Assembly (NCBI RefSeq): GCF_000020385.1
Contig: NC_010814.1
Span: 90,001 to 122,000 of the forward strand
Direction of reading: 5' to 3'
Length of the DNA stretch: 32,000 bases
DNA from: Trichlorobacter lovleyi SZ
GTDB lineage: Bacteria; Desulfobacterota; Desulfuromonadia; Geobacterales; Pseudopelobacteraceae
Positions 8,832-24,288 of this stretch are shown here, one piece after another (within the stretch, counting starts at the first letter, position 1; each line of letters opens with the position of its first letter). The notes under the pieces are model-generated. The model ran no database searches. It saw nothing but the letters and a program-made list of their open reading frames with translations, and was not told the DNA's origin. The translations under genes and the position numbers were made by a program.

Positions 8832-8884
8832 ACAGGCCACATAGCAGCCCAACTTTCGTTTTGGCTTCCGTGAGTTGCTGGGCT

Positions 8885-8946: not shown

Positions 8947-9867
8947 CTACTTCACAAAGCTGCCGTTATGGTACTCTTCAAAGGCGATACGCAGCTCTTC
9001 GCGACTGTTCATCACAATCGGCCCCTGCCAGGCAATCGGTTCACCCAGCGGCTGTCCGACCAGCAGCAGGAAGCGCAGCCCCTGCTCACCGGCAGTCACC
9101 CGGATGCCCTCCCCTTGGTGCTCGTACAGTATGGTTGTCTCGGGGCCAAAGCAGCAGTCCCGCTCCAGATCCAGCCAGCCCGTACCGGCATAGTCGTAGG
9201 CATAGGGATCACGGCCCTGATCAAAATAGCCCTGGCCGCTCAGCAGATAGGCCACCACGGTGTAGCCATCGGTTACGGCATGCTCAAAAACGGTGCCCGG
9301 CAGCAGGCGTACATCCAGCAGTTCCGGATCGGCCAGGATATCCTGTACCGGTCCCTGCACACCGGCCACCTTTCCTGCGATCACTTTAATTGAGGCACCA
9401 TTCTCCAGGGTTACTTCGGGGATGGTGGCAGCCGGGACATCGCGGTAGCGGGGGGCGATCATCTTTTGGCTGGCCGGCAGGTTGGTCCAGAACTGGAAGC
9501 CCCACATGGTGCCGCTGGGACTCAGTTTGGGCATCTCTTGATGGATGACGCCGCTGCCGGCCGTCATCCATTGTACGTCGCCGGCCCCGATCACCCCGCT
9601 GTTGCCCATGCTGTCGCCATGTTCCACCCGCCCCTCAAGGATGTAGGTGATGGTCTCGATCCCGCGGTGGGGATGCCAGGGAAAGCCTGCCAGATACTCG
9701 TCCGGGTTGTTGGTGTGGAAATCGTCCAGCATCAGGAACGGGTCGAACAGCGGGAGCTGGTGATAACCAAAGGCCCGCTTGAGGTGGACACCGGCTCCCT
9801 CTATGGTGGGAACGCTTTTAAACACCTTGCTGATGGAACGTGGTTGCATGTCTGGGTACCTCATCAT
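8947..9867 (-). CDS. pirin family protein
   Basis: HPHRGIETITYILEG motif and a bicupin-length protein. The start could be ATG 9849 (MQPRSISK, GAGG SD) instead of 9867. Confidence 0.9.
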   Translation of the reverse strand: MMRYPDMQPRSISKVFKSVPTIEGAGVHLKRAFGYHQLPLFDPFLMLDDFHTNNPDEYLAGFPWHPHRGIETITYILEGRVEHGDSMGNSGVIGAGDVQWMTAGSGVIHQEMPKLSPSGTMWGFQFWTNLPASQKMIAPRYRDVPAATIPEVTLENGASIKVIAGKVAGVQGPVQDILADPELLDVRLLPGTVFEHAVTDGYTVVAYLLSGQGYFDQGRDPYAYDYAGTGWLDLERDCCFGPETTILYEHQGEGIRVTAGEQGLRFLLLVGQPLGEPIAWQGPIVMNSREELRIAFEEYHNGSFVK

Positions 9868-9870
9868 GGC

Positions 9871-10443
9871 CTACTTTTTCAAGAGGCGGTAGGGATCGGC
9901 CCTGGTCAGCCAGGGGCTGTCAGGGTAGCCGGCTGCCAGCCGGTCATAGATGGCGACCAGATTGGCAACATCGTGGGTCTCGATATAGCGTGAGACGCCG
10001 TTCAGGTAGAGCGCCTCCGGGGCCTGGGGGCTTGCCGGATAGCGGTCGATGATGCTGCTGAAGCAGTCGCAGGCTGCCGGACGGTCAGGCTGGTTGAAGC
10101 GGGCCTTGCCGATGCCGAGCAGCAACGAGGGGATCAGCTCCTGCGGCGGATAAAAGCCAAGTGTACGGTACTGTTCCACCCCTTCTGCGTCAAGGATCAG
10201 CAGCGTTGGGGTCCACTTGATCCGGTAGCGCGGTCCCAGCAGCGGGTCGGCCGCTGCCAGCCGCAGGGGCACCAGGGTATCGTTTACAAATCCAATCACC
10301 TCGGCATCGATGTACGCGACCGCGTCCATCTGTTTGCAGCCGATTCAGTTGGGGTTGAAGAAATCGGCAAAGATCAGTTTATTTTCTGAGCGGGCCTTTT
10401 GGAGCCCCTCCTCAAACGATTCAATCCAGGCAATCTTTTCCAT
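9871..10443 (-). CDS. thioredoxin-fold protein, predicted selenoprotein (UxxC redox motif) with TPR-like tail
   Basis: The frame stays open from ATG 10443 (AGGAGAG SD) through a single in-frame TGA at 10345-10347 to stop 9871. Translation is MEKIAWIESFEEGLQKARSENKLIFADFFNPN-U-IGCKQMD..., and the U replaces the first Cys of the WCxxCKxMD motif of Thioredoxin_7/DUF255-like proteins. A SECIS-like hairpin lies downstream. Confidence 0.7.
10309..10330 (-). other. candidate bacterial SECIS stem-loop
   Basis: The minus-strand RNA GAUGGACGC-GGUC-GCGUACAUC starts 14 nt after the UGA. It has a 9-bp stem with one G/A mismatch and a GGUC apical loop. Confidence 0.55.
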
Positions 10444-10463
10444 GGCTCTCTCCTGTTGATTTT

Positions 10464-10967
10464 TCAGCCCTTCATCGCCCTGACCAGCAGCTCATAATCC
10501 TCCAGCAACGCCTGCAGGTCTTCCTCATGTTCAATCTCCTGCTGCAGGATGGTGAGGACCATGTTGTAGGTAACCGGGTCCTTGTCACGGGTGATGTCCA
10601 TCAGGCGTTTATAGACCCCGATGGCGCACTGCTCTCCCTTGATGTTCTGTTCCAGCAGGACCTTGACAAACGGGTCATCCGGGGCATCGTACCCGCAATT
10701 GGTATGCCGGTACCACTCCTCAGGTCTGGTAACCGGGGTTCCCCCCAGTTGAATGATCCGCATGGCCACCATGTCGGCATGCAGCAGCTCTTCGGTGGCA
10801 TGCTGCAACAGCTCGGCCCCGACCGCATCCTTCATCGGACCTTTGACCAGCTTGGCCCCCAGCCAGTACTGGTAGTAGGCCAGCCATTCATCGGAAAAGG
10901 CCCTGCGCAAAAGTTCCAGCAGCTCATCGACATCCATCCCGATAATTTCGCGTCCCTTTGATCCCAT
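10464..10967 (-). CDS. DPS-like (DPSL) ferritin-superfamily protein
   Basis: Four-helix ferritin-like sequence ending QQEIEHEEDL, with the Cys pair (HTNCGYDAP and GEQCAIGVY) that I recall as typical of the DPSL clade. AAGGAA SD. Confidence 0.8.
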   Translation of the reverse strand: MGSKGREIIGMDVDELLELLRRAFSDEWLAYYQYWLGAKLVKGPMKDAVGAELLQHATEELLHADMVAMRIIQLGGTPVTRPEEWYRHTNCGYDAPDDPFVKVLLEQNIKGEQCAIGVYKRLMDITRDKDPVTYNMVLTILQQEIEHEEDLQALLEDYELLVRAMKG

Positions 10968-10993
10968 GCGCGGTTTTCCTTTCGTTGGTGTGG

Positions 10994-11608
10994 TCAGGCG
11001 GTCAGTCTGGCGGTAATTTTTGCCACATGCGCCCCCTGAAACCGCGCAATGGCAAGCTCATTTTCAGAGGGGCGGCGGGAACCGTCGCCACCGGCCAGGG
11101 TGGTTGCCCCGTACGGGCTGCCGCCGCTGATTTCATCCATGGTCAGCAGACGTTGCTCCGTATAGGGGACACCAACGATAATCATGCCGTGGTGGAGCAG
11201 CGTGGAGTGAAAACTGGTGATGGTGGTCTCCTGGCCGCCGTGCTGGGTGGCGGTGCTGGCAAAGACGCTGCCGACCTTCCCCACCAGTCCGCCGCTCAGC
11301 CAGAGCTTGCCGGTCTGGTCCAGAAAATTGCGCATCTGGGCCGCCATGTTGCCGAAACGGGTCGGTGTGCCGAAGATGATGGCATCGGCCTCGGCCAGTC
11401 TCTCCACCGTGGCTGTCGGGATATGGGCAAAGGCGGCGCGGGCGGCTTTGGCCCCGTATTTTTCAAGTACCTCTTCGGAGATCAGTTCAGGCACCTGCAG
11501 CAGTTCCGCGCTGCAGCCCCCGACACTCCGCACGCCATCGGCAACGGCCTCGGCCATGGTATGGATGTGGCCGTACATGCTGTAAAACACGATCTGGATT
11601 TTTGACAT
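10994..11608 (-). CDS. wrbA: NAD(P)H:quinone oxidoreductase WrbA
   Basis: [22 protein letters not shown] is the flavodoxin-like WrbA N-terminus. Start set at ATG 11608 (CAGGAGG SD), not the extended ORF start at 11719. Confidence 0.9.
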
Positions 11609-11897
11609 GACAACCTCCTGAGCAGATTTTCTATGGCGTATGCCACAGCGGTTACCAAGACAGTCTAACACAACTTGTGCATAACGCTTTCTATGCAATG
11701 CAGATGCCTGTTTTGTCATAATAATGATCTGTGCCGGCGGCTGGTCGGCAGGATGGCAGGAGCGTCTGGACGGCAGCAGTCTTGCATGGCGTTCGGTCTT
11801 GTTTGGCAGGGGGCAGGGACAACAAGAGAGGCTGTCGGTTCAGCCCTGATACGGTCTCATGCTGAGATCCGGTTTCAAATTGAGACCGTCTGTGAGA

Positions 11898-15729: not shown

Positions 15730-17019
15730 GTGGCAACGGATCTGATGGACAGGCTGAAAATACTGGCAGACGGGGCAAAATACGATGTCTCCTGTTCTTC
15801 CAGCGGCAGCTCCCGCAGTAACAGCAACGGGATCGGTTCTGCTGCTTCCTGCGGTATCTGCCACAGCTGGACCAGTGATGGTCGCTGTGTCTCCCTGCTC
15901 AAGATCCTGATGACCAACCGCTGCATCTACGACTGCGCCTACTGCGTCAACCGCCGCAGCAATGACGTGCAACGTGTGGCGCTTTCTCCGGCCGAGGTGG
16001 CAGAGCTGACCATCGGCTTTTACCGCCGCAACTACATTGAAGGGCTCTTTCTCAGTACCGGCGTGGTCCGTTCTGCCGACTACACCATGGAACTGCTGAT
16101 TCAGGCAGTACGTACCCTGCGGGAGCAGTACCGTTTTAACGGCTACATCCATCTCAAGCTGGTGCCGGGTGCTGATCCGCTGCTGGTGCAGCAGGCCGGG
16201 CTCTGGGCGGACCGGGTCAGCGTCAATCTGGAACTGCCCACCCGTGAAAGTCTGCAACTGCTGGCACCGGATAAAACCCGTGATAGCGTGGTGGAGCCGA
16301 TGCGTCAGGTCAGCAACCTGATCACAACCAATCGGGCCGAGCGGAAGCAGTCCCGCAAGGTAGCCCGCTTTGCGCCGGCTGGTCAGAGCACTCAGCTGAT
16401 CGTGGGGGCCACGGGTGAATCTGACCGCCAGATTGTGACCCTGTCGGAACAGCTTTACCAGCGGCTTGATCTGAAGCGGGTCTACTACTCCGCCTTTATC
16501 CCCGCCGTGGCCGACAGCCGTCTGCCTGCCCGGCCCGAGGCTCCGCTCAAGCGTGAACATCGCCTGTACCAGGCCGACTGGTTGCTGCGCTACTACGGCT
16601 TCTCGGCCCATGAGCTGCTGGATGAGGGCTCCCCTAATCTGGACAGCGAGCTTGATCCCAAGACCGGCTGGGCCCTGCGCCATATTGAGCTGTTTCCGGT
16701 GGAGATCAATCGGGCCAGTTACGAAGAACTGTTGCGGGTGCCGGGGGTGGGAGTGCTGTCTGCCCAACGGATTGTCCGGGCCAGACGGCAAGGACATCTG
16801 GGACTGGATGATCTGTTCCGACTGGGAGTGGTAATGAAGCGGGCCCGCTACTTTATCACGGCCCGCGGCAGATCGCTGGAAGCTGCAGCGCTGGACAGCA
16901 GCAGCCTGCGCAGTCGCTTGATCGACAGAACAATGAGCCGGAAGCCACAGCAGCTCAGCCTTGATTTCAGTAATCCGGTTGACGACGAAACCCGCAGCCT
17001 GATTACGGGTGAACTGTAA
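15730..17019 (+). CDS. putative DNA modification/repair radical SAM protein (TIGR03916-like)
   Basis: N-terminus LKILADGAKYDVSC, CxxxCxxC as CIYDCAYC, and a C-terminal helix-hairpin-helix LLRVPGVGVLSAQRIV. GTG start with AAGGAGAG SD. The antisense ORF 15715..16797 is a shadow. Confidence 0.85.
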   Translation: MATDLMDRLKILADGAKYDVSCSSSGSSRSNSNGIGSAASCGICHSWTSDGRCVSLLKILMTNRCIYDCAYCVNRRSNDVQRVALSPAEVAELTIGFYRRNYIEGLFLSTGVVRSADYTMELLIQAVRTLREQYRFNGYIHLKLVPGADPLLVQQAGLWADRVSVNLELPTRESLQLLAPDKTRDSVVEPMRQVSNLITTNRAERKQSRKVARFAPAGQSTQLIVGATGESDRQIVTLSEQLYQRLDLKRVYYSAFIPAVADSRLPARPEAPLKREHRLYQADWLLRYYGFSAHELLDEGSPNLDSELDPKTGWALRHIELFPVEINRASYEELLRVPGVGVLSAQRIVRARRQGHLGLDDLFRLGVVMKRARYFITARGRSLEAAALDSSSLRSRLIDRTMSRKPQQLSLDFSNPVDDETRSLITGEL

Positions 17020-17768
17020 TGTCCGGTTGTTACTGCTATGACGGCACCCTGGCCGGGCTGCTGACCCTCTATGCCCGGTTATTGCCGGAACGGGTTGCCG
17101 TGGAACGGATCAGTGCTACCCCGCCTGATCAGCAGAGCCTGTTCAGCAGCGAGATCTGCATTGCCACGGATCAGGCCGTGGCAGAGGCGTTCTGGCAGCG
17201 TCTGACCAAACGTCTCTCCGGCAATTCACTCAAACTGTTGCGGCGCTGCCTGCTGGCTGATCATCCCCAACAGGAACTGCTGATCTACCACTATCTTCTG
17301 TTGGAGGCTGAACAGGGCTGGAAGGTTGACGGAATGCTGGCCCATCCACAGGTAGCACCGGTCTGGAAGCTGTCCCGGCAGGTGGGACGGGAGGCGCACC
17401 GCTACCTGGGCTTTGTCAGGTTTCAGCAGCTGCAGGACGGGCTGTACTATGCCGCCATTGCGCCGGATCATCGGATTCTGTTGCTGATCGGGGCCCACTT
17501 TGCCGAGCGGTTCCGTGACCAGCAGTGGATAATCCATGATCAGCGCCATGGTGAAGGAATTGTGTACGACTGTAACAGTAAGGAGTGGCTGCTGCTGCCG
17601 ATGGAGGTAACCGCCCAACCTGATGTCACTCCAGAGGAGGCTCAGTTTCAGAAGCTGTGGCACAGTTACTTCACCACCCTGGCCATCCCGGAACGCAGGA
17701 ATCTGAAGCTGCAGCAGGGCAAGGTACCGCTGAAGGTGCGGAGCTACCTGACGGAGTTTACGGTGTAA
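17019..17768 (+). CDS. TIGR03915-like probable DNA metabolism protein (DUF4130), partner of the radical SAM protein
   Basis: Its start overlaps the upstream stop (TAATG). The N-terminus YDGTLAGLLT is typical of the family. There is no fused uracil-DNA-glycosylase domain. Confidence 0.8.
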   Translation: MSGCYCYDGTLAGLLTLYARLLPERVAVERISATPPDQQSLFSSEICIATDQAVAEAFWQRLTKRLSGNSLKLLRRCLLADHPQQELLIYHYLLLEAEQGWKVDGMLAHPQVAPVWKLSRQVGREAHRYLGFVRFQQLQDGLYYAAIAPDHRILLLIGAHFAERFRDQQWIIHDQRHGEGIVYDCNSKEWLLLPMEVTAQPDVTPEEAQFQKLWHSYFTTLAIPERRNLKLQQGKVPLKVRSYLTEFTV

Positions 17769-18741: not shown

Positions 18742-20325
18742 TTATTTGCAGAGATTGGTAAAAGGCTGATTATCCTCGGCATCCCGGCCGTTCTGGATGG
18801 CATCCTTGTTCGGGATGCCGAGGTTGAGATCATGCAGCCGGTCTTTGGCCTCATTCCATGAAATGGCACCCACCACCGGATTTTTACAGGTTTTGTCGTT
18901 GGTGGTGAAGTTGGTTTTGCTGTTGTAGGTCATCAGACAGGTCAGCTTGCCGCCACCGCTGCAGTTTCTGACCAGGGTGAGGATCGTGCCGTCTTTGACC
19001 CGCAGCGGCACGGCATCAGGGCTGGTGAACGGGTGCGCGCTGCCGCTGTCGATACTGTAGGTCCCGCTTAGTCCGCCGGTCGGATGCAGCAGGAAATTGG
19101 GCAGCTGGATCGGGATCGTACCTGCTGCCCGTTTCCCGAAGCTGATCGTAAACCCCTTGATCTCGTTTGCCTTGCAGTTGCCCAGGCTGCCCGCGTCATC
19201 ATACTGCCAGGTGTAGGCGCCACTGCAGCCGCTGTTCTTGATGGTGTCGGGATAGCGTTTTGATGCCGCATCCCACACAAATTTGCAGCCGTCCTCCTGC
19301 TCAATGCAGACCACCTGATTCTGGGCGGCCTTATCCACCGGCTTGCCCGGTTTGCCCTGCTTGTCCTTGCTATCACCCCATTTGCCGTAGTCGCCCGCCT
19401 TCAGGGCCAGCGGCGAGCAGCCGGCCGAAGCGATGCCGGTGACCGGGTTTTTGTCAGGGCAGGGCGCCTTGTCGCTACACTGGTTACCGCAGCCGCAGGT
19501 GCTGTCGCTGGCGCATTTTGCTGCCAAAATAAAATACTGCTGCTTTTTCAGGAAATCCTTGTTGTCGGCCTCAAAAAGCTTGTACGGGGCAAGGCAGACG
19601 CCGCCGGCCGGGCGATCGGTCCAGGGACAGGCGGGCAGTGCGCTGCAGCCGACCGTCTTGGTGCAACTGCTGCTGGCGGTGGTGGTCAGGGTGATCTGGA
19701 TAGGGAAGTTATAGCCATCCACGTAACTGACGTTGTACCAGCTCTTGCCGTCCTTGTCGTTCAGGGTAAATTCTGCCATAGAGGCCGGCTGATTGCCGGT
19801 GGTGCAGGTATTGTCGCCGCAACCGTTGCCGCCGGAATCCTGGCAGCAGTCTCCCACGGCGCACTTGTTGCCCTCGCAGCCGGTCCTGGCAACAAACCGG
19901 CCGTTAAAGGTGGATGGAGCGCACCAGCTGCGGGTCTTGCCCGCCTCAAGCTTCCAGTCCGGAAAGCTGCTCTTGTCGGGAGCCTGGCCCCTGTTGGCCT
20001 TGCCCAGCCAGACCCCCAGAAAGATATCCTCCCCCGAGTTATTGACAAAATTCAGCGGAACGCAACTTTCTGCCTGTGGCAGGGCAACCGCGGCCTGTAG
20101 CGGTCGGGGAGCGGCCTGGGCAGCCTCCAGGCACTCCTGGAGGTGCCGGGCAAAGATTTCCTGATCGCCGGCCTTATCAAGGTTGTAGGTGTACTCAGCC
20201 GCCTTCTTCTCGCATTCGTAGCGGAGCTTTGAAAACCCCGGTGCTTCGGCAGCCTGGCCCACCGCTGCAACCAGACAGGTGGTGATGCTCAACAGTGCCA
20301 ACAGCTTCAACCGGACAGATGCCAT
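18742..20325 (-). CDS. secreted thaumatin-like protein (TLP domain plus extra N- and C-terminal regions)
   Basis: Start at ATG 20325 (AAGGAGGA SD) with signal peptide MASVRLKLLALLSITTCLVAAVGQA. Thaumatin-family blocks are present: GRFVARTGC, CAVGDC, ASMAEFTLN, WYNVSYVDGYNFPIQIT and AYTWQYDDAGSLGNC...GFTISF. Very Cys-rich. Confidence 0.75.
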   Translation of the reverse strand: MASVRLKLLALLSITTCLVAAVGQAAEAPGFSKLRYECEKKAAEYTYNLDKAGDQEIFARHLQECLEAAQAAPRPLQAAVALPQAESCVPLNFVNNSGEDIFLGVWLGKANRGQAPDKSSFPDWKLEAGKTRSWCAPSTFNGRFVARTGCEGNKCAVGDCCQDSGGNGCGDNTCTTGNQPASMAEFTLNDKDGKSWYNVSYVDGYNFPIQITLTTTASSSCTKTVGCSALPACPWTDRPAGGVCLAPYKLFEADNKDFLKKQQYFILAAKCASDSTCGCGNQCSDKAPCPDKNPVTGIASAGCSPLALKAGDYGKWGDSKDKQGKPGKPVDKAAQNQVVCIEQEDGCKFVWDAASKRYPDTIKNSGCSGAYTWQYDDAGSLGNCKANEIKGFTISFGKRAAGTIPIQLPNFLLHPTGGLSGTYSIDSGSAHPFTSPDAVPLRVKDGTILTLVRNCSGGGKLTCLMTYNSKTNFTTNDKTCKNPVVGAISWNEAKDRLHDLNLGIPNKDAIQNGRDAEDNQPFTNLCK

Positions 20326-20562
20326 GGCTATCCTCCTTTTCCAGCGCTGCGTTGTGGGATTGATGCTGCAGATTGGATTATATACTTCTAACAGAGTGCG
20401 GAGCGATGTCAAATCAGTCAGCTGGAAAGGGGGAGAGAGAACTGATGCAGTAACTGGGGTGTCTTGGTTTATGAAATCATACATACTTGCAATTATCGCA
20501 GTTGTTCCCTAAATAGATAAAATTACGCTGCCTCGTGCAGGCACGACATCACGGAGGATTCT

Positions 20563-21948: not shown

Positions 21949-22185
21949 TTACTCCTTGATCAGCCTGTGCTGCCGGAAGATCGCCTCCACCAGGGGGCCG
22001 TCTTCCACGGTAAAGCCGATCTTGACCCACTGGCTCTTCAGGTCGGCCATAAAGATCCTGTCGCGCCTGGGCCGGTCGTAATCTGCCGGAAACCAGGTCT
22101 TGATGTTGCCGGTGCCGTGCAGGCAGGGGCCAAAGCTTTTGTCTCCTGTTGGCTGACCGAAGGCGCAGGCGACAGGCGTACCCTG
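21949..22185 (-). pseudogene. 5'-truncated gene remnant (C-terminal 78 codons, family not recognised)
   Basis: Protein-like open frame ...VACAFGQPTGDKSFGPCLHGTGNIKTWFPADYDRPRRDRIFMADLKSQWVKIGFTVEDGPLVEAIFRQHRLIKE* with no usable start codon. The frame opens right after a TGA at 22186-22188 and overlaps the low-complexity tail of the Mrr-like ORF in another frame. Confidence 0.5.
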
Positions 22186-22826
22186 TCAATCAGGCTCTTC
22201 AGTTGAGGGCCGTCAATCAACTCAAGGTTAAGTCCTTGAGCAAACTTTATTGCCTCATCGGTATACACGCCAGAGGTCACAAAGTAGCCGCCGGCCGCGC
22301 CATTTGCAGCCATGACACCGTAAAACTCACGCACCGGCTGGACCCCGACCTTGTAGGCCTTCCACTGTTTGCACTGCACCAGATGCTTTTCGCTGTTTTT
22401 GCGTACTACAAGGTCGATGCCGCTGTCAGGGCCATTGCCGCCTGCCCGGCTCACCTGAAAACCGGCACGCTGGAAGTGCTCGGCAACCAATCGCTCAAAA
22501 TCGCCCCAGCTCATCTGATTGAGCGCAGTTGCATCAGCTGCTGCTGCCGCTTTCTCATAGAGCCTTTTTTGGCGCAGTGCGTTTATGCCTGAAATGAGCG
22601 CGGCCAGTCCAAAGCCAAAAGGCAGGATGTATTGACCAAGCATGGCAAGGGATGCCAGCATGCCTTTTACCACCATCTCACCCACTGTGGCTGATGTAAG
22701 CGGACGGCCGGCAATCTGGTGCAGCACGGCATAGGAAACCAACGCCAATACGATTCCGACCCACCAGGGGAGCCTGCTGGTCGCCAGTACTAACTCTTCA
22801 AATGGGCTTGTCTTCTGTCTGGGCAT
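22038..22826 (-). CDS. membrane-anchored Mrr-type (PD-(D/E)xK) restriction endonuclease domain protein, C-terminus probably aberrant
   Basis: N-terminal TM helices, then Mrr_cat-like WGDFERLVAEHF...GIDLVV...LVQCKQW...GYFVTSG. After ...LIDGPQLKSLIDR the last roughly 45 aa are A/P/S/T/G/R low complexity, consistent with read-through into foreign sequence. Confidence 0.7.
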   Translation of the reverse strand: MPRQKTSPFEELVLATSRLPWWVGIVLALVSYAVLHQIAGRPLTSATVGEMVVKGMLASLAMLGQYILPFGFGLAALISGINALRQKRLYEKAAAAADATALNQMSWGDFERLVAEHFQRAGFQVSRAGGNGPDSGIDLVVRKNSEKHLVQCKQWKAYKVGVQPVREFYGVMAANGAAGGYFVTSGVYTDEAIKFAQGLNLELIDGPQLKSLIDRVRLSPAPSVSQQETKALAPACTAPATSRPGFRQITTGPGATGSLWPT

Positions 22827-22950: not shown

Positions 22951-24288
22951 TCAGCATTGTCCGGTTAGGGACTTGCATGTGCTGGGTATTCTGTTGAAGT
23001 TTCTGTTTTTGCATCGTTTTCATATTCAGCCATCATTTGTATGATTTCGTTGTGTATGGCAATTCTCAGTTCTCTGACACGTTGAATACTGACTTTTTCC
23101 TGATGTTCTTCATGGCAGTAAATGGCCAGTAACAGATAGGTGATCAATCCACCCATAATCTGCGCCATCAAGCCATTGGGACTGCGAGCTATCAGGTGGT
23201 ACACCTTGAGGTGCTGCTTCCACCAGCCAAAGAAGATCTCAATGTCCCATCTGAGCTTGTAGATGAGGGCTATTTCTTCAGCTTTCAGGTCAAACCGGTC
23301 TGTGGCAACATAGAAATCCTTGTTCTCCACCTTGTAGCCGATGACACGAACTGGCTTTTCTGTCTGGTTTTGTCCTTTGGTTCCCAGAAGGCATTCTACG
23401 TCCAGAAAGACATGGCTGCCTTCAAGAAGTTCCCGCTCTTTCAGAACCGTCTTTCTGGTGGCCTTTCTGATACGGCAGACAAAGTGTTTCTCAGCCTCCT
23501 GCCACTCATCGAAGTTCTTGTGGCACTGGTAGTAGCGATCCATAACGCCGGTCTGCCCAGACTTCAGGATCTTGGCAACAAAGGGGCGTTCATCAGCCTT
23601 GCCTGCAGACAGAAAGAGCTTTTCAGGAATGCCTCTATTCAGGTCAAAACCAACATGTACCTTGGCCTTGTGTGCGCCGTCCCGGTAATCAGCCCACTGC
23701 ATGGAGGCCATGGCATCGATCAGTGAGCCGTCAATGCCGATCAGGTCACCCCATTCTGGATGGGCAGCAGGAAGCAACTTCTTTGCCTGGCCTTGCAGAT
23801 AGTGATACATCTCGATCAACTGCTGCACCCCACGGGTATTCATGGCCTCAAAAAAGGCGCCCCGACTTACCCCTTCGGGTGGTGCAATATGGTCCTTGGC
23901 AAAAGCATCTTGATCGAGCACCTGCAGTAACTCACGTCCTGACTGGTGGTCGTGAAGATGGAACCAGGTAAGTGAAGACAATTGGTGTTCAAAGGTAAAG
24001 GTCAATGGGCGGTTACTCCTTGATTTCAGAGGTGTCAAAGAGGGTAACCCATCAACCAGCGGTTTGAATAGTCTTGAGTACACAAGCGGCTTTCCATGAC
24101 GGCAGAATGGTCTGAAATGACGTGGCATACACAACCTCGCAATATCAATATCTTACGAGGTGGCGGCGCGCCGATTTTGCACTCAAAGTCAAGCAAAATG
24201 TACTTCATCATACTATTTTTATTGATGTTTTAAAGAACCATTCTACTGCCGTGCTTATGAATGCATATTTCTAACCGGACACTGCTGA
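22951..24288 (-). mobile_element. complete IS element (IS4/IS5-superfamily DDE transposase), 1338 bp
   Basis: Terminal inverted repeats TCAGCATTGTCCGGTTAG (22951-22968) and the reverse complement of 24271-24288 (TCAGCAGTGTCCGGTTAG) match 17/18. It is flanked by a 7-bp direct repeat AGAAAAC (22944-22950 and 24289-24295). Confidence 0.85.
22965..24134 (-). CDS. DDE transposase (DDE_Tnp_1 type)
   Basis: GIDGSLIDA, VMDRYY and YKLRWDIEIFFGWWKQHLK (the Y-R-E-K signature region). Start could be the second ATG (MPRHF...). Confidence 0.85.
   Translation of the reverse strand: MCMPRHFRPFCRHGKPLVYSRLFKPLVDGLPSLTPLKSRSNRPLTFTFEHQLSSLTWFHLHDHQSGRELLQVLDQDAFAKDHIAPPEGVSRGAFFEAMNTRGVQQLIEMYHYLQGQAKKLLPAAHPEWGDLIGIDGSLIDAMASMQWADYRDGAHKAKVHVGFDLNRGIPEKLFLSAGKADERPFVAKILKSGQTGVMDRYYQCHKNFDEWQEAEKHFVCRIRKATRKTVLKERELLEGSHVFLDVECLLGTKGQNQTEKPVRVIGYKVENKDFYVATDRFDLKAEEIALIYKLRWDIEIFFGWWKQHLKVYHLIARSPNGLMAQIMGGLITYLLLAIYCHEEHQEKVSIQRVRELRIAIHNEIIQMMAEYENDAKTETSTEYPAHASP

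Follow-up and report, generated by a model that had tools for sequence, protein, structure and literature searches.

Does the in-frame TGA at 10345-10347 on the minus strand of the window (the whole 32-kb stretch of DNA analysed here) end a gene, or is it read as selenocysteine (Sec) inside a longer one? The ORF list splits the locus into a 152-aa ORF at 9871..10329 (-) and a 32-aa ORF at 10345..10443 (-), the latter with the sequence MEKIAWIESFEEGLQKARSENKLIFADFFNPN. The first-pass annotation of this DNA had followed the frame of the ORF that begins at 10329 upstream through the TGA to an ATG at 10441-10443, and its coordinates are correct: in the translation of 9871-10470 (-), the frame is continuous from this ATG through the TGA to the TAG at 9871-9873, with only one internal stop, located between FFNPN and IGCKQMDAVAY, and with LLKK as the last residues. 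The 32 added codons, followed by U-IGCKQMD at a UxxC position, are seen in the same single-frame translation, and the AGGAGAG Shine-Dalgarno sequence that had been described as well spaced is found at 10448-10454, with AGGAG 6 nt from the ATG. No Shine-Dalgarno sequence stands ahead of the internal ATG at 10327-10329, where the preceding sequence is GCAAACAG, and the residue it encodes, Met39, is invariant in relatives and forms part of the active-site helix. We conclude, in support of the first-pass interpretation, that the TGA at 10345-10347 is almost certainly a selenocysteine codon, which places Sec in the active site of a thioredoxin-fold protein of 190 residues. It is also highly probable that 9871-10443 (-) forms a single gene whose product, a cytoplasmic selenoprotein of 190 residues, is an ortholog of the described "Thiol:disulfide interchange protein" family (PF13098, UxxC). 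The features of the locus are listed in Table 1.

Table 1. Positions of the predicted selenoprotein gene, its parts and its neighbours in the window
Feature	Position	Strand	Remarks
Complete CDS of the predicted selenoprotein	9871..10443	-	190 codons plus TAG 9871-9873; UGA as Sec at codon 33; single frame, one internal TGA
Shine-Dalgarno AGGAGAG	10448..10454	-	AGGAG ends 6 nt 5' of ATG 10441-10443; read from sequence
Predicted Sec codon UGA	10345..10347	-	First position of UxxC, U33-I-G-C36; Cys36 is TGC 10336-10338
Internal ATG, Met39 of the CKQMD motif	10327..10329	-	Gene callers' start; the 152-aa ORF begins here
Core SECIS-like hairpin GAUG-G-ACGC [GGUC] GCGU-A-CAUC	10309..10330	-	Loop 10318-10321; -8.3 kcal/mol alone
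Extended element, UGA to possible lower stem	10301..10347	-	UCGGC 10339-10343 with GCCGA 10301-10305; tentative
DsbD-gamma-like thioredoxin-fold domain	10090..10443	-	Residues about 1-118; Pfam Thioredoxin_2, model, PDB matches
C-terminal helical TPR-like domain, YbgF/CpoB/BamD type	9874..10089	-	Residues about 119-190; weak Pfam TPR_6 and YfiO matches
Upstream neighbour, ferritin-like protein	10464..10967	-	Pfam Ferritin E = 4.8e-27; stop 20 nt before selenoprotein start
Downstream neighbour, pirin	8947..9867	-	Pfam Pirin and Pirin_C; start 3 nt after selenoprotein stop
Terminator-like hairpin and T-run after pirin	8833..8851	-	Consensus scan; possible end of transcription unit

Much of the evidence for read-through is comparative. 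Database relatives were gathered with a profile built from the 152-aa parts, and the full-length relatives' loci, 34 in number, belong to Geobacterales, Desulfuromonadales, Desulfobulbales, Syntrophobacterales and Syntrophales (five deltaproteobacterial orders). The ortholog in the window is from a Trichlorobacter-like organism, with 91% identity to the T. thiogenes locus and 99% to a metagenome protein. The column of the TGA holds TGA in 34/34 of these loci, never TAA or TAG, and the shared motif around it is DFFNP[NG]-U-IGC[KQ][QR]M. The possibility that homologs start at the MDAV methionine is not borne out, as the true start lies upstream in all 34 loci and the 32 upstream codons are kept as protein with free synonymous variation. 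Because the normalised synonymous entropy of upstream codons 2-32 (0.69) is close to that of codons 61-186 (0.75), codons 2-32 must be translated. Both flanks of the TGA are under purifying selection, and there are no frameshifts and no further stops. In three divergent members of roughly 40-50% identity the TGA is retained and is followed by a hairpin in the corresponding position, its stem made of other sequences. The expectation of Cys or Sec at this column also holds beyond the TGA loci, since at least 19 full-length representatives carry Cys there in CIGC, CVGC and CPGC forms (for example P0121, FFNPGCIGCKQM, and P0130, FFNPACIGCKQMD). These observations bear directly on whether the TGA is a sequencing error or the mark of a pseudogene, that is, a nonsense mutation of a Cys codon in a thioredoxin-like gene of which fragments are left. 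In favor of this, TGC and TGT are each one nucleotide from TGA, and gene callers and RefSeq give a 152-aa hypothetical protein. However, the TGA occurs in all the loci of five orders, in the three divergent members and in the genes published for G. metallireducens, G. uraniumreducens and S. aciditrophicus, and the selection on either side of it, with synonymous sites free to change and the frame intact, is not that of a pseudogene. The probability of a pseudogene or error is thus negligible, and the comparative data effectively refute it.

The same alignment helps to decide whether the region might hold two genes, one for a leader peptide of 32 aa that stops at the TGA and one for a TPR protein of 152 aa translated from the ATG at 10327-10329, with the hairpin acting in translational coupling or attenuation. 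Such an arrangement is favored by the independent calling of both ORFs in many metagenomes and by the overlap of the hairpin with the internal ATG. However, the 15 nt between the TGA and the internal ATG always encode I-G-C-K/Q-Q/R in frame, the full-length Cys-form relatives are continuous with CxxC placed exactly across the junction, and only TGA is ever used as the stop, a restriction that a plain terminator would not call for. Moreover, the internal ATG is without a Shine-Dalgarno sequence, and the 152-aa product would be a thioredoxin fold that lacks strand beta-1 and the active-site residue. Two separate genes are therefore extremely improbable.

Starting 14 nt after the UGA, the RNA folds as GAUGGACGC-GGUC-GCGUACAUC, and the GGUC loop (10318-10321) occupies nt 24-27 after the UGA with 23 nt (10322-10344) intervening, as the first-pass annotation had described. 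The hairpin is present in both the MFE and centroid folds. Published bSECIS criteria (PMC13188914 Fig. 2) comprise a loop of 3-9 nt, a stem of 4-16 bp, a G in the first two loop positions (the loop usually starting with GG or GU), a spacing of 16-37 nt and an MFE <= -7.5 kcal/mol. Here the loop has 4 nt, and the stem consists of ACGC/GCGU (4 bp), a G.A mismatch and GAUG/CAUC (4 bp). The loop reads GGUC in the window and most orthologs, AGUU in loci L016 and L017, and AGUUAC and CGUGAC in divergent members, with G-U retained in all loops. The spacing of 23 nt is invariant in the 33-sequence alignment, and the 22-nt hairpin folds at -8.3 kcal/mol, a 48-nt element that includes a possible lower stem at -16.1 kcal/mol. 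Taken alone, this sequence folds only marginally better than its shuffles and not clearly better than chance (z = -0.5 over 71 nt; z about -2 whether the 22-nt hairpin or the 48-nt element is scored); the significance of the hairpin comes from comparative data. The five core pairs are intact in 33/33 aligned sequences, with one compensatory change from C-G to U-A, and formal covariation statistics among close orthologs are weak because the stem hardly varies among them. The normalised synonymous entropy averages 0.72 over the gene and is lowest, at 0.17, in codons 40-44, which lie under the hairpin (z = -4.6). Residues 40 and 44 are coupled (D-Y 24, N-F 6, D-F 2, N-Y 0), and their combinations match G.A, A-U and G-U at hairpin position 28/41. 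The entropy minimum, the compensatory pair and the divergent stems at the same place indicate a constraint on the RNA beyond the protein code, and the expected stable hairpin after the UGA coincides with the strongest synonymous constraint of the gene. The locus is a clean example of a putative SECIS within active-site codons, where synonymous sites are frozen and two amino-acid positions are coupled.

In relatives, an analogous lower stem, GGCUGC/GCAGUN (alignment columns 13-18 with 52-57), is 86% paired, and because no two-sided (compensatory) changes are seen, the lower stem is only tentative. A pairing of GGCUGC with GCGGUCG (columns 12-18 with 31-37), which RNAalifold prefers, was not adopted: it shows no two-sided changes, would consume the GGUC loop and does not account for the lack of synonymous change in codons 43-44 of the 3' arm, and it is a possible alternative conformer. 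Rfam gave no match to the whole window at gathering thresholds, nor to 10230-10400 at E <= 10, and the element falls outside every curated SECIS model there. In the mechanism that we propose, translation would start at the ATG at 10441-10443 behind its good Shine-Dalgarno sequence, and the UGA at 10345-10347 would be read as selenocysteine with the help of the hairpin 14 nt past it, a putative bacterial SECIS that would recruit SelB carrying Sec-tRNA(Sec).

The UGA might also be decoded without Sec, if a suppressor or a near-cognate tRNA for Trp or Cys reads it, to give a W/CxxC protein. In favor of this, no tRNA or tRNA-Sec was found by ARAGORN in the 32-kb window, no Trichlorobacter SelA is named among the 120 SelA matches listed, and the database record P0253 is translated with W at this column. 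However, UGA is normally a stop in the window, because TGA terminates 9 of its 22 confident ordinary genes; the element downstream agrees with all bSECIS criteria and has a GGUC loop as in E. coli fdhF; and Trp at the catalytic position would abolish redox activity, the W of P0253 being most simply explained by translation with the wrong code. The taxa that carry the selenoprotein gene are, moreover, documented Sec users: SelA was found in G. metallireducens RCH3 and many Geobacteraceae, and Geobacter SelA, SelB and SelD are given in the supplements and Table 3 of Zhang et al. (2006). Read-through independent of Sec is thus very improbable, and we infer that Sec is inserted in the source organism. 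The pseudogene, the two-gene and the Sec-independent readings were all rejected in favor of a selenoprotein gene.

This family of selenoproteins is already known, having been predicted about 20 years ago. The Geobacter metallireducens ortholog is listed under "Thiol:disulfide interchange protein", with U at the Sec position, in additional file 4 of Zhang et al. (2006, Genome Biol 7:R94), and the window protein shows 70% identity with that sequence over 190/190 residues without gaps (E = 1e-106). The published sequence agrees by eye with our translation of locus L040. The same motif is present in the members from G. uraniumreducens and S. aciditrophicus, and the 2006 census (Zhang et al. 2006) counts three Sec members of the family. 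Two reviews of 2022 and 2026 (PMC9312934, PMC13188914) list the family as PF13098, UxxC, with WP_011366075.1, trace it to Kryukov and Gladyshev (2004) and give its status as a predicted selenoprotein. Because the family had been predicted as a selenoprotein, the gene in the window is a correct call and not a discovery.

The domain searches point to a thioredoxin fold. With U replaced by C, the 190-aa product has its best Pfam match to Thioredoxin_2 (PF13098), with 33.9 bits against a cutoff of 27 over residues 17-104. The 152-aa ORF alone stays below this cutoff, and passing it requires the upstream 32 codons. The first-pass annotation was right in expecting a thioredoxin-fold Pfam family, and the assignment to a Thioredoxin_7/DUF255 type has to be replaced by Thioredoxin_2, since Thioredoxin_7 (21.6 bits) is below cutoff and DUF255/Thioredox_DsbH (26.8 bits) falls just short of 27. 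The profile of the thioredoxin domain also matches PDB 2kuc and DsbD. The TPR-like region has NCBIfam matches to YbgF and BamD and PDB profile matches to CpoB (6g5s) and YbgF (2xev), and an AlphaFold model of a Cys-form relative (pLDDT 98) has four to six helices in the C-terminal region. Neither a signal peptide nor a hydrophobic segment was read in the 190-aa sequence; since there is no signal peptide, the protein is presumably cytoplasmic. In the chemistry that we propose, Sec33 would be the N-terminal attacking residue of U-I-G-C at the start of helix alpha-1 in a DsbD-gamma-like thioredoxin fold and Cys36 the resolving residue, and the predicted activity is disulfide reduction or exchange through a selenylsulfide intermediate. 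The C-terminal YbgF/CpoB-type TPR-like helices may provide a partner- or substrate-binding surface, in an overall Trx+TPR layout that would resemble YbbN/CnoX.

The gene neighbourhood gives less guidance. Pirin, the downstream neighbour, is probably co-transcribed with the selenoprotein gene, and a full-length pirin gene follows immediately in 6/34 loci of the clustering, the window and 5 others. The neighbourhood is otherwise poorly conserved: pirin alone recurs (6/34), OYE is found occasionally, and the ferritin-like and WrbA-like neighbours are specific to the lineage of the window. The ferritin-like gene should be considered context and not a conserved partner, because it is absent from the corresponding position in T. 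thiogenes. The case for the terminator-like hairpin after pirin is weak, since the consensus scan yielded 5 sites and chance alone would give 3.1. The pirin, ferritin-like and WrbA-like neighbours could point to a role in stress response; given the poor conservation, an operon-based function beyond this weak redox or stress flavour is unjustified. A CnoX-like client-binding reductase that acts together with pirin in a stress operon would, if the Trx+TPR layout has this meaning, amount to a new assignment of function.

It is also evident that the family is poorly annotated. That standard callers would truncate the gene had been foreseen, and the best 120 database homologs are indeed all 151-154 aa long and all cut at the internal Met. 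A database search with the N-terminus only returned 32-aa mini-ORFs and no full-length annotated record. In RefSeq/GenBank, close relatives are entered at 152-154 aa, without the catalytic residue, as "hypothetical" or "tetratricopeptide repeat" proteins (for example WP_078788788.1, WP_173201304.1, WP_320371480.1 and EHP89026.1). The family has no model in NCBIfam release 20, whose selenoprotein models (TsoB, Trx7/PDZ, VPGUxxT and others) stay below cutoff, the best being seleno_TsoB with 31.2 bits against 805, and the published G. metallireducens member and the Cys forms likewise reach no NCBIfam cutoff. Among the nearest 120 cluster representatives (50% identity), 87 start at or after the motif Met, which was taken as the signature of a truncated Sec form, and full length is reached by about 25, of which 19-21 carry Cys; truncated Sec forms thus outnumber full-length forms by about 3 to 1. 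With hundreds of database clusters against 3 published Sec members, we tentatively raise the possibility that the literature understates the family, which could be far bigger and more strongly dominated by Sec forms. The biology is confirmatory and the practical value lies in annotation: hundreds of database clusters would be put right by a family-specific profile model that includes a Sec exception.

How does the locus compare with known systems? In the E. coli fdhF SECIS, better characterised than any other in bacteria, the loop G and U contact SelB. The GGUC apical loop of the fdhF element is confirmed: a 45-nt fdhF stretch, present without any mismatch in the fdhF genes of at least 5413 E. 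coli genomes, forms a hairpin with GGUC as its loop. Both hairpins lie just 3' of the UGA inside coding sequence and have the identical GGUC apical tetraloop on a short G+C-rich upper stem. Directly beneath that stem the helix is irregular in both, with a bulged U in fdhF and a G.A mismatch in the window. The distance differs, the loop starting 18 nt after the UGA in fdhF and 23 nt in the window, and the stem sequences are unrelated. For the N-terminal domain, the best structural and profile match is DsbD gamma, the periplasmic thioredoxin domain at the C-terminus of DsbD (PDB 1vrs/1uc7/2fwf; 2fwe-h), with a target-normalised TM of 0.72-0.76, an rmsd of about 2-3 A, 28-29% identity and the CxxC/UxxC in the same place. 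However, DsbD is a multi-domain protein with a membrane and an alpha domain, whereas the selenoprotein is predicted to be soluble and stand-alone, without signal peptide, membrane or alpha domain, and to have Sec for the first Cys and an extra TPR-like domain. The match to the DsbD model of NCBIfam (NF001419) is confined to the gamma-domain region (model positions 458-566) and reaches 26.6 bits against a cutoff of 330, below family membership. The chaperedoxin YbbN/CnoX of E. coli (PDB 3qou, 3qdn) has the same layout, an N-terminal thioredoxin fold followed by TPR helices, and the E. coli protein carries SxxC in place of a redox-active CxxC. Foldseek aligns about 190 columns with a probability of 1.0 and 13-16% identity; the rmsd is 10-12 A, and therefore the domain arrangement differs, and the TPR part of the selenoprotein is shorter and of YbgF/CpoB type. 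The published family ("Trx-like 2", PF13098/cd02953, UxxC) is the same protein, with the same FFNP[GN]-U-IGCKQMDAV motif, Pfam family and SECIS core sequence, and in the same taxa, Geobacteraceae and Syntrophus. Most of its relatives lack the context of the window ortholog, which lies between a ferritin-like gene and pirin, and nothing essential differs in the window ortholog.

In the mechanical ORF list, the window gene (9871-10443, minus strand, 190 codons) appears as two separate ORFs, but translation of 9871-10470 on the minus strand gives one continuous frame that contains just one internal stop, MEKIAWIESFEEGLQKARSENKLIFADFFNPN*IGCKQMDAVAY...RADPYRLLKK*. The first-pass annotation had placed this TGA (codon 33) in one frame with an upstream ATG preceded by an AGGAGAG Shine-Dalgarno motif and followed past the UGA by a GGUC-loop hairpin; because coordinates, frame and hairpin all check out (see table), its statements on the sequence are correct, and the observation is confirmed. 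UGA is also a normal stop in this organism, since 9 of the 22 ordinary genes of the window end in TGA.

Table. Coordinates of features at and around the predicted selenoprotein gene
Feature	Position	Strand	Source
152-aa ORF	9871..10329	-	mechanical ORF list
32-aa ORF, separate	10345..10443	-	mechanical ORF list
In-frame TGA	10345-10347	-	read from sequence
Start ATG	10441-10443	-	read from sequence
AGGAGAG; AGGAG ends 6 nt 5' of start ATG	10448-10454	-	read from sequence
Internal ATG; GCAAACAG in front, without ribosome-binding site	10327-10329	-	read from sequence
Hairpin GAUGGACGC-GGUC-GCGUACAUC, 14 nt past UGA	10309-10330	-	MFE and centroid structures
Ferritin-like gene, 20 nt before selenoprotein gene	10464-10967	-	
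Pirin gene, 3 nt after selenoprotein gene	8947-9867	-	
Terminator-like sites	11829-11846 and 8833-8851		consensus matches only

Among 5.8 billion proteins, 314 relatives were found, and the best 120 of these are all 151-154 aa long and cover about 80% of the query; each is therefore truncated at the same Met, as expected from the suggestion that standard callers truncate the gene. A scan of species-representative genomes yielded 39 loci, and the tblastn alignment crosses the stop in 33 of them. The extracted loci keep the motif DFFNP[NG]-stop-IGC[KQ][QR]M[DN]AV, and with the window included the stop is TGA in 34/34 sequences and TAA or TAG in 0/34. Carriers include Trichlorobacter thiogenes (91%), Geobacter hydrogenophilus and Desulforhabdus sp. 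TSK, together with MAGs labelled Geobacteraceae, Desulfuromonadales, Desulfobulbales, Syntrophobacteraceae, Syntrophus and Smithella. The 32 codons upstream of the TGA had been proposed to be conserved, and indeed their amino acids are conserved while third positions change freely, with a normalised synonymous entropy of 0.69 vs 0.75 for codons 61-186. These codons are translated.

We also ran an exhaustive profile search over 1.84 billion cluster representatives with the 152-aa part as query. Two populations are evident: one has lengths of about 150 aa and aligns from residue 1, the other has 186-203 aa and aligns from residue 37-54. The longer relatives are uninterrupted and carry Cys at the UGA column (P0121, FFNPGCIGCKQM; P0130, FFNPACIGCKQMD; P0136, CIGCRQMDAV), apart from a few SxxC variants, so that the column holds Cys in these proteins and TGA in all 34 loci, in agreement with the expectation of Cys or Sec in homologs. 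Among 120 family-sized representatives, 87 begin at or after the motif Met and about 25 span the full length, with Cys present in 19-21 of the latter. Three of the divergent short members were examined as DNA; in each a mini-ORF ends 15 nt upstream, and read-through gives FFNPG-TGA-IGCKQMGAV, FFWPT-TGA-GGCKKMNTV and FFLPT-TGA-GGCQRMDTV. These results support the selenoprotein interpretation. One database record of the family, P0253 (NPGWIGCQQMDAV), has Trp at the Sec column and is degenerate past about 120 residues, and the Trp apparently reflects translation by some pipeline with a UGA-as-Trp code. Beside one divergent member (locus L042), an AhpC-TSA gene (L042:2629-3117, minus strand) is split into calls of 48 and 107 aa; read through, it gives ...LIYRGHW-TGA-AMCRQQ..., with an in-frame TGA at a UxxC position, and is probably a peroxiredoxin-like selenoprotein that is gene-caller-truncated too.

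The hairpin past the UGA is present in both the MFE and centroid folds. On the window sequence by itself the fold is not impressive, with a z-score of -0.5 for 71 nt, and z of about -2 both for the 22-nt hairpin (-8.3 kcal/mol) and for the 48-nt element (-16.1 kcal/mol). In an alignment of 33 sequences, the pairs G27-C42, A29-U40 and C32-G37 (alignment columns) are formed in 33/33, as are C30-G39, with one C-G to U-A double change and one U-G, and G31-C38, with two G-U; position 28/41 is G.A in 25, A-U in 6 and G-U in 2 sequences. Shuffle-based covariation is weak because the stem is nearly invariant among orthologs. Synonymous constraint is stronger evidence for an RNA element than covariation: codons 40-44 (GAC GCG GUC GCG UAC) have a per-codon synonymous entropy of 0-0.33 bits vs the 1.8-2.0 reached by flanking four-fold codons, and are the whole-gene minimum in a 5-codon sliding scan (0.17 vs a mean of 0.72, z = -4.6). 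Residues 40 and 44 in the active-site helix (codons within 10312-10326, minus strand) are D-Y in 24, N-F in 6, D-F in 2 and N-Y in 0 sequences; they co-vary because of the single SECIS-stem position 28/41 (D-Y = G.A, N-F = A-U, D-F = G-U). In divergent members the stems differ (GGGUGC/GUACCC, GAAUAC/GUAUUC) while the hairpin distance and the G-U in the loop are unchanged. The bSECIS model calls for a loop of 3-9 nt, an upper stem of 4-16 bp, a G at loop position 1 or 2, a spacing of 16-37 nt and MFE <= -7.5 kcal/mol (PMC13188914). The window element (4-nt GGUC loop; 4-bp stem, with 4 further pairs under a mismatch; GG at the loop start; spacing 23 nt; -8.3 kcal/mol) lies within these limits and thus agrees with all published bSECIS criteria; it has no match to an Rfam model.

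With U changed to C, the 190-aa product matches Pfam Thioredoxin_2 (33.9 bits, cutoff 27, residues 17-104), whereas Thioredox_DsbH/DUF255 (26.8) and Thioredoxin_7 (21.6) stay below threshold; the best match is Thioredoxin_2 rather than the proposed Thioredoxin_7/DUF255 type. On its own, the 152-aa ORF stays under every thioredoxin cutoff in Pfam. No NCBIfam model covers the 190-aa protein, the best being TsoB and DsbD gamma-domain regions far under their cutoffs, and weak TPR_6, YfiO, YbgF and BamD matches (Pfam, NCBIfam) lie in the C-terminal third. An AlphaFold model of the Cys-form relative P0130 (23-sequence alignment) is of very high confidence (pLDDT 98.1, pTM 0.92). It starts with a helix and a strand, helix 33-42 has the CxxC at its N-terminal end, the remaining strands and helices of the thioredoxin fold extend to about residue 116, and four to six helices follow; a profile search of PDB sequences relates the C-terminal part to the TPR domains of CpoB and YbgF and to BamD. 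The N-terminus (MEKIAWIESFEEGLQK...) reads as hydrophilic, so that the selenoprotein is presumably cytoplasmic. Sec33 is the predicted attacking nucleophile of a disulfide reductase/exchanger and Cys36 the predicted resolving residue, with the TPR-like domain as a putative partner or client binder.

Further upstream of the ferritin-like gene lie a WrbA-like FMN reductase (10994-11719, minus strand) and an OYE flavin oxidoreductase, and the two terminator-like sites may delimit a unit made up of the WrbA-like, ferritin-like, selenoprotein and pirin genes. The mechanical ORF of the WrbA-like protein is probably overextended by about 37 codons, since its Pfam match begins at residue 43 and the flavodoxin-like sequence starts inside it. 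In T. thiogenes (L001:2600-3010), the end of OYE lies about 390 nt upstream of the selenoprotein gene, and neither a ferritin-like nor a WrbA-like gene is present there; window 10464-11719 (minus strand) is a two-gene indel among close relatives. Pirin is the only neighbour that recurs in relatives (the window and 5 other loci, 6/34). The context is suggestive of redox or quinone stress, but the neighbourhood is not a conserved system.

Elsewhere in the window, a 580-aa ORF (18742-20484, minus strand) has a Thaumatin-family domain at residues 158-313 (PF00314, E = 7.7e-20). Thaumatin-like proteins are chiefly eukaryotic, and the gene is therefore unusual for a bacterium. A radical-SAM plus helix-hairpin-helix protein (15730-17019, plus strand) is followed with a stop/start overlap by a DUF4130 protein (17019-17768); the arrangement resembles a conserved pair of genes for DNA modification or repair. 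An Mrr-type restriction endonuclease (22038-22826) adjoins a DDE transposase (22965-24134; both minus strand), and the two mark a mobile or variable segment.

No tRNA was found in the 32-kb window. Zhang et al. 2006 (Genome Biol 7:R94) documented SelD as a selenoprotein and gave SelA and SelB sequences of G. metallireducens and G. uraniumreducens. Our SelA search found it in G. metallireducens RCH3, G. pickeringii, Geotalea, Geomonas and Desulfuromonadales, with no Trichlorobacter SelA named among the 120 matches listed.

The family has been described before. It is among the predicted selenoprotein families of a 2022 review (PMC9312934), is "predicted with high confidence" in a 2026 review (PMC13188914, citing Kryukov & Gladyshev 2004), and was named "Trx-like 2 (cd02953, DsbD-gamma)" in the GOS paper. 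Under "#Thiol:disulfide interchange protein", additional file 4 of Zhang et al. 2006 lists the G. metallireducens sequence MAQIEWITSLAEGLSMAGRENRLVLLDFFNPGUIGCKQMDAVAYPD...RADPYKLLKR, as well as members from G. uraniumreducens and S. aciditrophicus that share the motif. A 152-aa "hypothetical protein" of G. metallireducens RCH3 clusters at 90% identity with the G. hydrogenophilus homolog; it is encoded at a locus divided into 32 aa + 152 aa as in the window, and the read-through translation of that locus equals the published G. metallireducens sequence at every residue (compared by eye). The window protein is 70% identical to this member over 190/190 residues without gaps. Taken together, the cluster, the split, the published U and this identity make the finding a correct re-discovery, and the window gene belongs to a known, predicted selenoprotein family. 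Only three members are on record, whereas the family seems to be much larger and more dominated by Sec forms, and it is still systematically mis-annotated, with RefSeq records of 152-154 aa, no NCBIfam model and an N-terminus represented by mini-ORFs only.

In structure, DsbD-gamma (1vrs, 1uc7, 2fwe-h) gives the top Foldseek PDB matches for the thioredoxin domain (target-normalised TM 0.72-0.76, rmsd about 2-3 A, 28-29% identity), which explains the historical name "Thiol:disulfide interchange protein". In overall layout, the thioredoxin-TPR protein YbbN/CnoX (3qou, 3qdn) aligns along the entire length, yet with an rmsd of 10-12 A. At the RNA level, the GGUC loop proposed for E. coli fdhF is borne out by folding: this 45-nt sequence, which at least 5413 genomes share in fdhF with 100% identity, has a GGUC tetraloop like that of the window element and a bulged U, and its loop starts 18 nt past the UGA, 5 nt closer than in the window element.
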